From: Escherichia coli
Lineage (GTDB): Bacteria > Pseudomonadota > Gammaproteobacteria > Enterobacterales > Enterobacteriaceae
DNA length: 64,000 bases
Assembly: GCF_003334765.1 (NCBI RefSeq)
Contig: NZ_QOWT01000001.1
Reading direction: 5' to 3' (one strand)
Below, piece by piece: positions 28,870-30,834 of the stretch. Within the stretch, counting starts at the first letter, position 1. The number at the start of each line of letters is the position of its first letter. Position numbers and translations under genes: made by a program. The notes beneath the pieces are model-generated. The model had not been told where the DNA came from. It made no database searches and saw only the letters and a program-made list of their open reading frames with translations.

Positions 28870-30834
28870 GTGAGCATGGATATAAGCGATTTTTATCAGA
28901 CATTTTTTGATGAAGCGGACGAACTGTTGGCTGATATGGAGCAGCATCTGCTGGTTTTGCAGCCGGAAGCGCCAGATGCCGAACAATTGAATGCCATCTT
29001 TCGGGCTGCCCACTCGATCAAAGGAGGGGCAGGAACTTTTGGCTTCAGCGTTTTGCAGGAAACCACGCATCTGATGGAAAACCTGCTCGATGAAGCCAGA
29101 CGAGGTGAGATGCAACTCAACACCGACATTATCAATCTGTTTTTGGAAACGAAGGACATCATGCAAGAACAGCTCGACGCTTATAAACAGTCGCAAGAGC
29201 CGGATGCCGCCAGCTTCGATTATATCTGCCAGGCCTTGCGTCAACTGGCATTAGAAGCGAAAGGCGAAACGCCATCCGCAGTGACCCGATTAAGTGTGGT
29301 TGCCAAAAGTGAACCGCAAGATGAGCAGAGTCGCAGTCAGTCGCCGCGACGAATTATCCTTTCGCGCCTGAAGGCCGGGGAAGTCGACCTGCTGGAAGAA
29401 GAACTGGGACATCTGACAACGTTAACTGACGTGGTGAAAGGGGCGGATTCGCTCTCGGCAATATTACCGGGCGACATCGCCGAAGATGACATCACAGCGG
29501 TACTCTGTTTTGTGATTGAAGCCGATCAGATTACCTTTGAAACAGTAGAAGTCTCGCCAAAAATATCCACCCCACCAGTGCTTAAACTGGCAGCCGAACA
29601 AGCGCCAACCGGCCGCGTGGAGCGGGAAAAAACGACGCGCAGCAGTGAATCCACCAGCATCCGTGTAGCGGTAGAAAAGGTTGATCAATTAATTAACCTC
29701 GTCGGCGAGCTGGTTATCACCCAGTCCATGCTTGCCCAGCGTTCCAGCGAACTGGACCCGGTTAATCATGGTGATTTGATAACCAGCATGGGGCAGTTAC
29801 AACGTAACGCCCGTGATTTGCAGGAATCAGTGATGTCGATTCGCATGATGCCGATGGAATATGTTTTTAGTCGCTATCCCCGGCTGGTGCGTGATCTGGC
29901 GGGAAAACTCGGCAAGCAGGTAGAACTGACGCTGGTGGGCAGTTCCACTGAGCTCGACAAGAGCCTGATAGAACGCATTATCGACCCGCTGACCCACCTG
30001 GTACGCAATAGCCTCGATCACGGTATTGAACTGCCAGAAAAACGGCTCGCCGCAGGTAAAAACAGCGTCGGAAATTTAATTCTGTCTGCCGAACATCAGG
30101 GCGGCAACATTTGCATTGAAGTGACCGACGATGGGGCGGGGCTAAACCGTGAGCGAATTCTGGCAAAAGCGGCCTCGCAAGGTTTGACTGTCAGCGAAAA
30201 CATGAGCGACGACGAAGTCGCGATGCTGATATTTGCACCAGGCTTCTCCACGGCAGAGCAGGTCACCGACGTCTCCGGGCGCGGCGTCGGCATGGACGTC
30301 GTTAAACGTAATATCCAGGAGATGGGCGGTCATGTCGAAATCCAGTCGAAGCAGGGTACTGGCACTACGATCCGCATTTTACTGCCGCTGACGCTGGCCA
30401 TCCTCGACGGCATGTCCGTACGCGTTGCGGATGAAGTTTTCATTCTGCCGCTGAATGCTGTCATGGAATCACTGCAACCCCGTGAAGCCGATCTGCATCC
30501 ACTGGCCGGCGGCGAGCGGGTGCTGGAAGTGCGGGGCGAATATCTGCCCATCGTCGAACTGTGGAAAGTGTTCAACGTCGCGGGCGCGAAAACCGAAGCC
30601 ACCCAGGGAATTGTGGTGATCTTACAAAGTGGCGGTCGCCGCTACGCCTTGCTGGTGGATCAATTAATTGGTCAGCACCAGGTTGTGGTTAAAAACCTTG
30701 AAAGTAACTATCGCAAAGTCCCCGGCATTTCTGCTGCGACCATTCTTGGCGACGGCAGCGTGGCACTGATTGTTGATGTCTCCGCCTTGCAGGCGATAAA
30801 CCGCGAACAACGTATGGCGAACACCGCCGCCTGA
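28870..30834 (+). CDS. cheA: Chemotaxis histidine kinase CheA (long form); internal ATG at 29161 (Met98) is the CheA-short start
   Basis: 654 aa from GTG; phosphoacceptor [10 protein letters not shown]; HATPase and CheW-like domains. Confidence 0.95.

Follow-up and report, generated by a model that had tools for sequence, protein, structure and literature searches.

Which of the in-frame ATG codons inside the chemotaxis gene cheA gives rise to a second, shorter protein, and by what features can that start be told from its neighbours? We address this question in a 64,000-nucleotide stretch of Escherichia coli DNA (the window), whose + strand carries flhDC, motAB, cheAW, tar, tap, cheRBYZ and flhBAE. 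An earlier note on this DNA had read cheA as starting at the GTG at 28870 and as holding a second start at Met98, which would yield a CheA-short (CheA-S) lacking the phosphorylation site His48. We conclude, with a probability of about 0.96, that positions 29161-30834 are the CheA-short frame and that ribosomes start independently at GTG 28870, start(L), and at the AUG of codon 98, start(S). In what follows, coordinates, identity with K-12, accessibility, conservation and constraint come from our own analysis, and initiation at AUG 98 and the binding of CheZ are taken from the literature.

The long coding sequence (CheA-L, 654 aa) spans 28870-30834 on the + strand. As proposed, its GTG opens a 654-codon frame that runs to the stop at 30832-30834, which the coordinates include, and the PGAP annotation of cheA in strain H3 and the RefSeq long coding sequence of K-12 have the same extent. 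Four nucleotides before the GTG lies the Shine-Dalgarno (SD) sequence of start(L), GAGGTGA (28859-28865, + strand; duplex of -7.2 kcal/mol), matching the ribosome-binding site (RBS) that a passage of PMC8745638 quotes for long cheA as 'gagguga'. In protein numbering, Pfam places Hpt at residues 8-100, the CheY-binding domain at 161-223, H-kinase_dim at 261-324, HATPase_c at 372-508 and CheW at 514-640. The codon of the phosphorylation site His48 (CAC, 29011-29013, + strand) is read in CheA-L only.

The 2.8 kb at 28600-31400 (motB 3' end, cheA and cheW) are 100% identical to strain H3. Used as a query, this segment is at least 80% present in 5,375 of 5,426 complete E. coli genomes, in which the annotation always reads motB-cheA-cheW, and has no match in 44 of the 5,426. 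In one record labelled K-12 MG1655 (NZ_CP009685.1), 62 of the 2,801 nt of the query matched, and that stock appears to lack the region. The idea that the whole window is strain H3 was rejected as false left of roughly 13100: there (12853-13155), at a tRNA-Gly/Cys/Leu cluster, H3 departs from the window and continues into a P2-like prophage (integrase, replication endonuclease, portal, terminase), and the window has uvrC, tcy genes, flagellin and fliD. Relative to K-12 MG1655, cheA carries 12 nucleotide differences, leading to N259S and K484E, of which none falls within -40 to +20 of ATG 29161 and none in the 60 nt before the GTG. The segment at 29869-29884, for which a passage of PMC2790909 describes above-control frameshifting in a reporter, is unchanged in the window.

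The internal start itself is where the earlier note had put it. Its own check, whether codon 98 is an in-frame ATG, finds one at 29161-29163 (+ strand), 291 nt after GTG 28870, (29161 - 28870)/3 being 97. The 16 nt preceding this ATG are GGAAACGAAGGACATC, and the purine-rich stretch that had been remarked on corresponds to an SD sequence, GAAGGA (29151-29156, + strand), of which AAGGA (29152-29156) pairs with the anti-SD at -5.4 kcal/mol across a spacer of 4 nt (CATC). The frame that follows (29161-30834, + strand; 1,674 nt, that is, 557 aa and a stop) is defined by the translation, by the short coding sequence in RefSeq and by Pfam. Under b1888, the reference genome NC_000913.3 lists two coding sequences, a long one at 1973360-1975324 and a short one at 1973360-1975033 (1,674 nt), and the latter begins ATGCAAGAACAG, which is the window from 29161 onward. 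A 70-mer centred on start(S) is exact (70/70; threshold at least 99%) in 5,364 of 5,379 E. coli genomes. In this strain, a 557-aa product from AUG 98 would be expected from nucleotide identity with K-12.

Met98 lies at the end of the Hpt match, and a protein begun there lacks the first 97 residues. On the Pfam map it loses the four-helix bundle with His48 and retains the last P1 helix, the linker and P2-P5 (P2 161-223, P3 261-324, P4 372-508, P5 514-640). The claim that the second start produces a CheA-short without His48 thus agrees with the extent of the RefSeq short coding sequence, with the literature and with the place of the His48 codon upstream. The statement that the start is 'conserved here' held in a trivial sense only, because the window is E. 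coli itself, with -40 to +20 identical to K-12; the site is the E. coli CheA-S start and not a conserved homologue of it. The CheA-S start is already known, being annotated in the reference genome and characterised in the literature, and since that genome already has the short coding sequence, spotting it in a scan is correct annotation and no discovery. The primary CheA-S papers are reportedly those of Smith and Parkinson (1980), Kofoid and Parkinson (1991) and Sanatinia et al. (1995), whose content reaches us second-hand.

Later work describes the start and its product directly. Passages of PMC2644175 give E. coli CheA two alternative start codons, report that CheA(M98I) yields no CheA-S and also treat the interaction of CheA-S with CheZ. 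According to PMC7696710, CheA-S starts at codon ATG-98, chemotaxis is possible without it, and M98L removes CheA-S and delocalises CheZ. An excerpt of PMC3676780 states that CheA-S, which has no phosphorylation site, binds CheZ and stimulates the dephosphorylation of CheY-P, both in E. coli and in Salmonella; one of PMC7750401 describes CheA-S as CheA minus its first 97 residues, with Leu123 and Leu126 as CheZ contacts. A CheA-S-YFP fusion was driven by the endogenous internal RBS (passage of PMC2716512), and the RBS of short cheA is given as 'gaagga' in PMC8745638, the sequence present at 29151-29156. Co-expression of long and short CheA in other Enterobacteriaceae is attributed to McNamara and Wolfe (1997) in passages of PMC3676780 and PMC8745638. 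The literature searched yielded no ribosome-profiling or N-terminomics record of start(S).

We then ask what distinguishes codon 98 within the gene. There are 18 in-frame ATGs in cheA, and an in-frame ATG with upstream purines is by itself unremarkable against chance. One of them, Met81 (ATG 29110; 29102-29112), has GAGGUGA in front of it, the heptamer of start(L), whose seven nucleotides are all complementary to the 16S 3' end. Because this SD-like match is stronger than that of Met98 (-7.2 versus -5.4 kcal/mol), the purine-rich stretch fails to single out Met98, and SD strength as the sole criterion was rejected. Accessibility, computed as the energy needed to open -20 to +9 under local folding of the motA-cheW mRNA, separates the two: none of the 18 in-frame ATGs opens more easily than Met98, whose 5.35 kcal/mol falls at the 3.6th percentile of motA-cheW positions and is comparable to the values for the real starts of motB (5.28 kcal/mol) and cheW (4.70 kcal/mol), whereas Met81 requires 8.39 kcal/mol (29th percentile). 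Folding of the 160 nt around start(S) is no more stable than that of shuffled sequences (z = +1.46). Met98 is set apart by its identity with K-12, its accessibility and the comparative constraint described below, and not by its SD sequence.

For the comparison we scanned species-representative genomes and obtained 80 Enterobacterales cheA loci at 61-96% amino acid identity, which together with the window make 81 sequences. The 80 loci include Citrobacter, Enterobacter, Pantoea, Erwinia, Serratia, Yersinia, Dickeya, Photorhabdus, Xenorhabdus, Proteus and Edwardsiella, and contain no Salmonella, Shigella, E. albertii or E. fergusonii. An ATG occupies the aligned codon 98 in 81/81, inside the motif LFLE[TA]KDIMQ, a count that carries a mild ascertainment bias, as one of the six peptide patterns used for retrieval (ETKDIMQE) contains Met98; synonymous sites are unaffected by it. 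His48 is likewise invariant in 81/81 and is kept in 146 of 150 representatives of distant CheA clusters. Of these representatives, 146 align at position 98, with Leu in 95, Val in 20, Ile in 14 and Met in 9. Since Leu, Val and Ile dominate there, position 98 is a generic hydrophobic helix position, and it is Enterobacterales in particular that place Met there, the residue whose codon also serves as a start. The top-scoring distant representative (59% identity, 720 aa) has Leu at 98 and a Met one residue earlier (KDML).

Some of the loci have peculiarities of their own. Cedecea colo (L080), Yersinia artesiana (L081) and Enterobacter sp. BIGb0383 (L082) each carry, beside the orthologue, a second, divergent CheA paralogue (64-65% identity) that keeps the IMQ motif and the in-frame ATG, L080 with AAGGA upstream. 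In Kluyvera intermedia (L011; locus from 1498) the cheA frame is open for 128 codons, yet the tblastn match covers all 653 residues, which is likely due to a frameshift, a pseudogene or an assembly error. Eight loci from Photorhabdus, Xenorhabdus, Proteus and a MAG (L063-L069 and L072) have GTA at the codon aligned with the E. coli GTG start; GTA is no start codon, and CheA-L must therefore begin there at the ATG that corresponds to E. coli codon 3.

The clearest comparative signal lies at the nucleotide level just before the ATG. We analysed synonymous variation by codon in 77 orthologues (430 windows), with permutation within amino-acid classes. Codons 86-97 (29125-29160, + strand; AU-rich, ...ATCAAyCTGTTTTTGGAAACnAArGAyATy) show the strongest synonymous constraint in cheA, with a diversity of 0.20-0.25 against a gene mean of 0.51, the lowest of all 430 windows and below the 0.34-0.36 of the cheA 5' end. 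After correction for codon bias, their residual is -0.266, compared to a permutation minimum of -0.128 ± 0.021 that reached this value in 0 of 5,000 permutations. Selection on the protein cannot account for such a minimum, which is the signature of a functional nucleotide element just upstream of the ATG. The shared block reads ATCAAC CTG TTT TTG GAA ACN AAA GAT ATT ATG, AU-rich and with AU-ending synonymous codons fixed.

The SD sequence is not what the block has in common. The window and the loci L003, L019, L054 and L080 alone have AAGGA, and the other 76 of the 81 have AAAGA: the E. coli AAGGA arises from AAG-GAC, where these 76 use AAA-GAT or AAA-GAC. Five loci (four Xenorhabdus-type, one Photorhabdus) also have no GG upstream; in Photorhabdus, Xenorhabdus and Proteus, Met98 is preceded by TTAGAAGCGAAAGAT, without GG. 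A decent SD sequence at start(S) is thus nearly confined to Escherichia and three scattered loci, and what the sequences share, probably from their ancestor, is the open AU-rich context. Because the SD of start(S) is modest (-5.4 kcal/mol), its spacer short and AAAGA the form in most other Enterobacterales, SD pairing alone does not explain initiation. We infer that codons 86-97 are the ribosome landing region for start(S), and the comparison suggests that in most enterics an open, AU-rich context matters more for initiation than SD pairing does.

Two other accounts of the short form concern the identity of its first residue. That the internal start in use is, or includes, Met81 would fit its stronger SD-like GAGGUGA and the 4-nt spacing from GAGG to AUG, but Met81 is the less open of the two, gives way to Leu or Ile in 13 of the 81 Enterobacterales sequences, has an upstream GAGG whose conservation does not extend beyond Escherichia, and sits among codons (70-83) that show no synonymous constraint. 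Mutation of codon 98 alone, moreover, abolishes the short form, according to passages of PMC2644175 and PMC7696710, and we give Met81 next to no credence. The same very low credence goes to the reading that Met98 is only a structural Met of the P1 bundle, unused as a start, with short CheA arising by proteolysis in the P1-P2 linker. Position 98 does belong to a conserved hydrophobic core in distant CheA (Leu, Val, Ile or Met in 138/146), and the protein motif around it, LFLE[TA]KDIMQ, is strongly conserved too, so some of the conservation belongs to the protein. Yet Met is exclusive in Enterobacterales where other lineages prefer Leu, and the region opens as easily as genuine starts do. No synonymous sites in cheA are under tighter constraint than those upstream of Met98, for which protein-level selection is no explanation, and the nucleotides are identical to those of K-12, in which substitutions at codon 98 abolish CheA-S.

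Initiation by ribosomes at AUG 98 being the preferred reading, a further alternative accepts the constraint at codons 86-97 and assigns it to something other than an RBS: a regulatory RNA or protein site that sets the ratio of long to short form (L:S), an RNase site, or a switch formed by an inverted repeat. Synonymous diversity falls lower in the block than at the start of cheA (0.20 versus 0.34-0.36), the block reaches about 35 nt upstream, beyond a minimal SD, and a good SD is absent there in most taxa. A weak inverted repeat of 9 bp, CTGTTTTTG at 29137-29145 and CAAGAACAG at 29164-29172 (+ strand), also brackets the SD and the AUG, placing both in the loop of a predicted hairpin of -7.9 kcal/mol; 92.6% of cells retain the potential to pair. 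The hairpin, however, has no covariation above that of shuffles, RNAalifold found no consensus structure in the start(S) region, the literature passages on CheA-S name no regulator of L:S, and an AU-rich, open block is what an SD-poor initiation region needs. A conserved regulatory hairpin at start(S) is neither supported nor excluded by these results, and we hold it improbable that the constraint reflects any such site in place of an RBS. A little less doubtful, though offered tentatively, is that the near-frozen block of about 35 nt, which persists in Enterobacterales whose SD there is unusable, may exceed a passive RBS, as a standby site or S1-binding platform that is AU-rich and independent of an SD, or as the target of a trans-acting regulator that tunes L:S.

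An internal promoter giving a shorter cheA transcript was rejected: no sigma-70-like promoter was found in 28600-29300 and no sigma-28 consensus upstream of start(S), and nothing therefore suggests a separate transcript. Exact sigma-28 matches (TAAA-N15-GCCGATAA) number two in the window, against 0.02 expected by chance, and lie only at 31445-31471 (+ strand), just upstream of tar, and at 1306-1332 (- strand), in the fliC/fliD region at the left end of the window.

Taken with the literature, ribosomes on the motA-motB-cheA-cheW mRNA would make CheA-L (654 aa) from GTG 28870 and, by separate initiation at the in-frame AUG 98, CheA-S (557 aa). The internal start would work because AAGGA lies 4 nt upstream within the AU-rich, poorly structured codons 86-97, whose synonymous sites are held nearly constant across Enterobacterales. 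Lacking nearly all of the Hpt (P1) bundle, including His48, CheA-S cannot be phosphorylated; as it keeps P2-P5, it can still form dimers, enter receptor arrays and trans-phosphorylate CheA-L as its partner. CheZ would bind to the exposed N-terminal segment of CheA-S, near Leu123 and Leu126, and the CheY-P phosphatase would so be concentrated at the receptor cluster. In the window, the codons of Cys120, Leu123 and Leu126 lie at 29227-29247 (+ strand) by translation, the two leucines being the contacts named in a passage of PMC7750401; C120 and L123 are invariant in the 81 sequences and L126 is present in 76/81. The partner gene cheZ is found at 37157-37801 (+ strand) by translation of its open reading frame and is annotated as cheZ in strain H3; its product has the apical-loop aromatic pair Trp97 and Phe98.

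The closest known counterpart is the K-12 start itself (b1888 short coding sequence, NP_416402.2), which shares with the window the gene, frame, codon 98, 1,674-nt extent, nucleotides from -40 to +20, GAAGGA RBS, His48, Cys120, Leu123 and Leu126, with cheZ downstream in the same cluster; the gene differs only at strain level, by the 12 nucleotides and two substitutions given above. With other Enterobacteriaceae the aligned in-frame ATG, the LFLE[TA]KDIMQ motif and the constrained AU-rich block upstream are common to all 80 loci, and CheA-S there is a candidate; these loci mostly have AAAGA(T/C) in place of the AAGGA(C) seen here, with an SD of -3.3 instead of -5.4 kcal/mol. A more distant parallel is infB, whose IF2 alpha and beta are named beside cheA as in-frame internal-initiation isoforms in a passage of PMC12350097. 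There, too, a single mRNA carries tandem in-frame starts and gives two N-terminal proteoforms, of which the shorter is missing an N-terminal domain, but family and function are other, and CheA-S gains a CheZ-binding surface rather than just losing a domain.

To this known case our analysis makes small additions: a Met that is particular to Enterobacterales at this position, a stretch just before it in which the synonymous constraint of cheA is deepest, and an AAGGA found in little more than Escherichia. Openness, synonymous constraint and a lineage-specific Met together offer a sequence-only way in which a genuine internal start and a decoy such as Met81 can be told apart. If the block does prove to be more than an RBS, Escherichia would have strengthened an older element recently, by its AAGGA. 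CheA-S is a classic bacterial case in which one gene gives two proteins via tandem in-frame starts, and by placing CheZ at the receptor array it shapes where in the cell CheY-P is destroyed.
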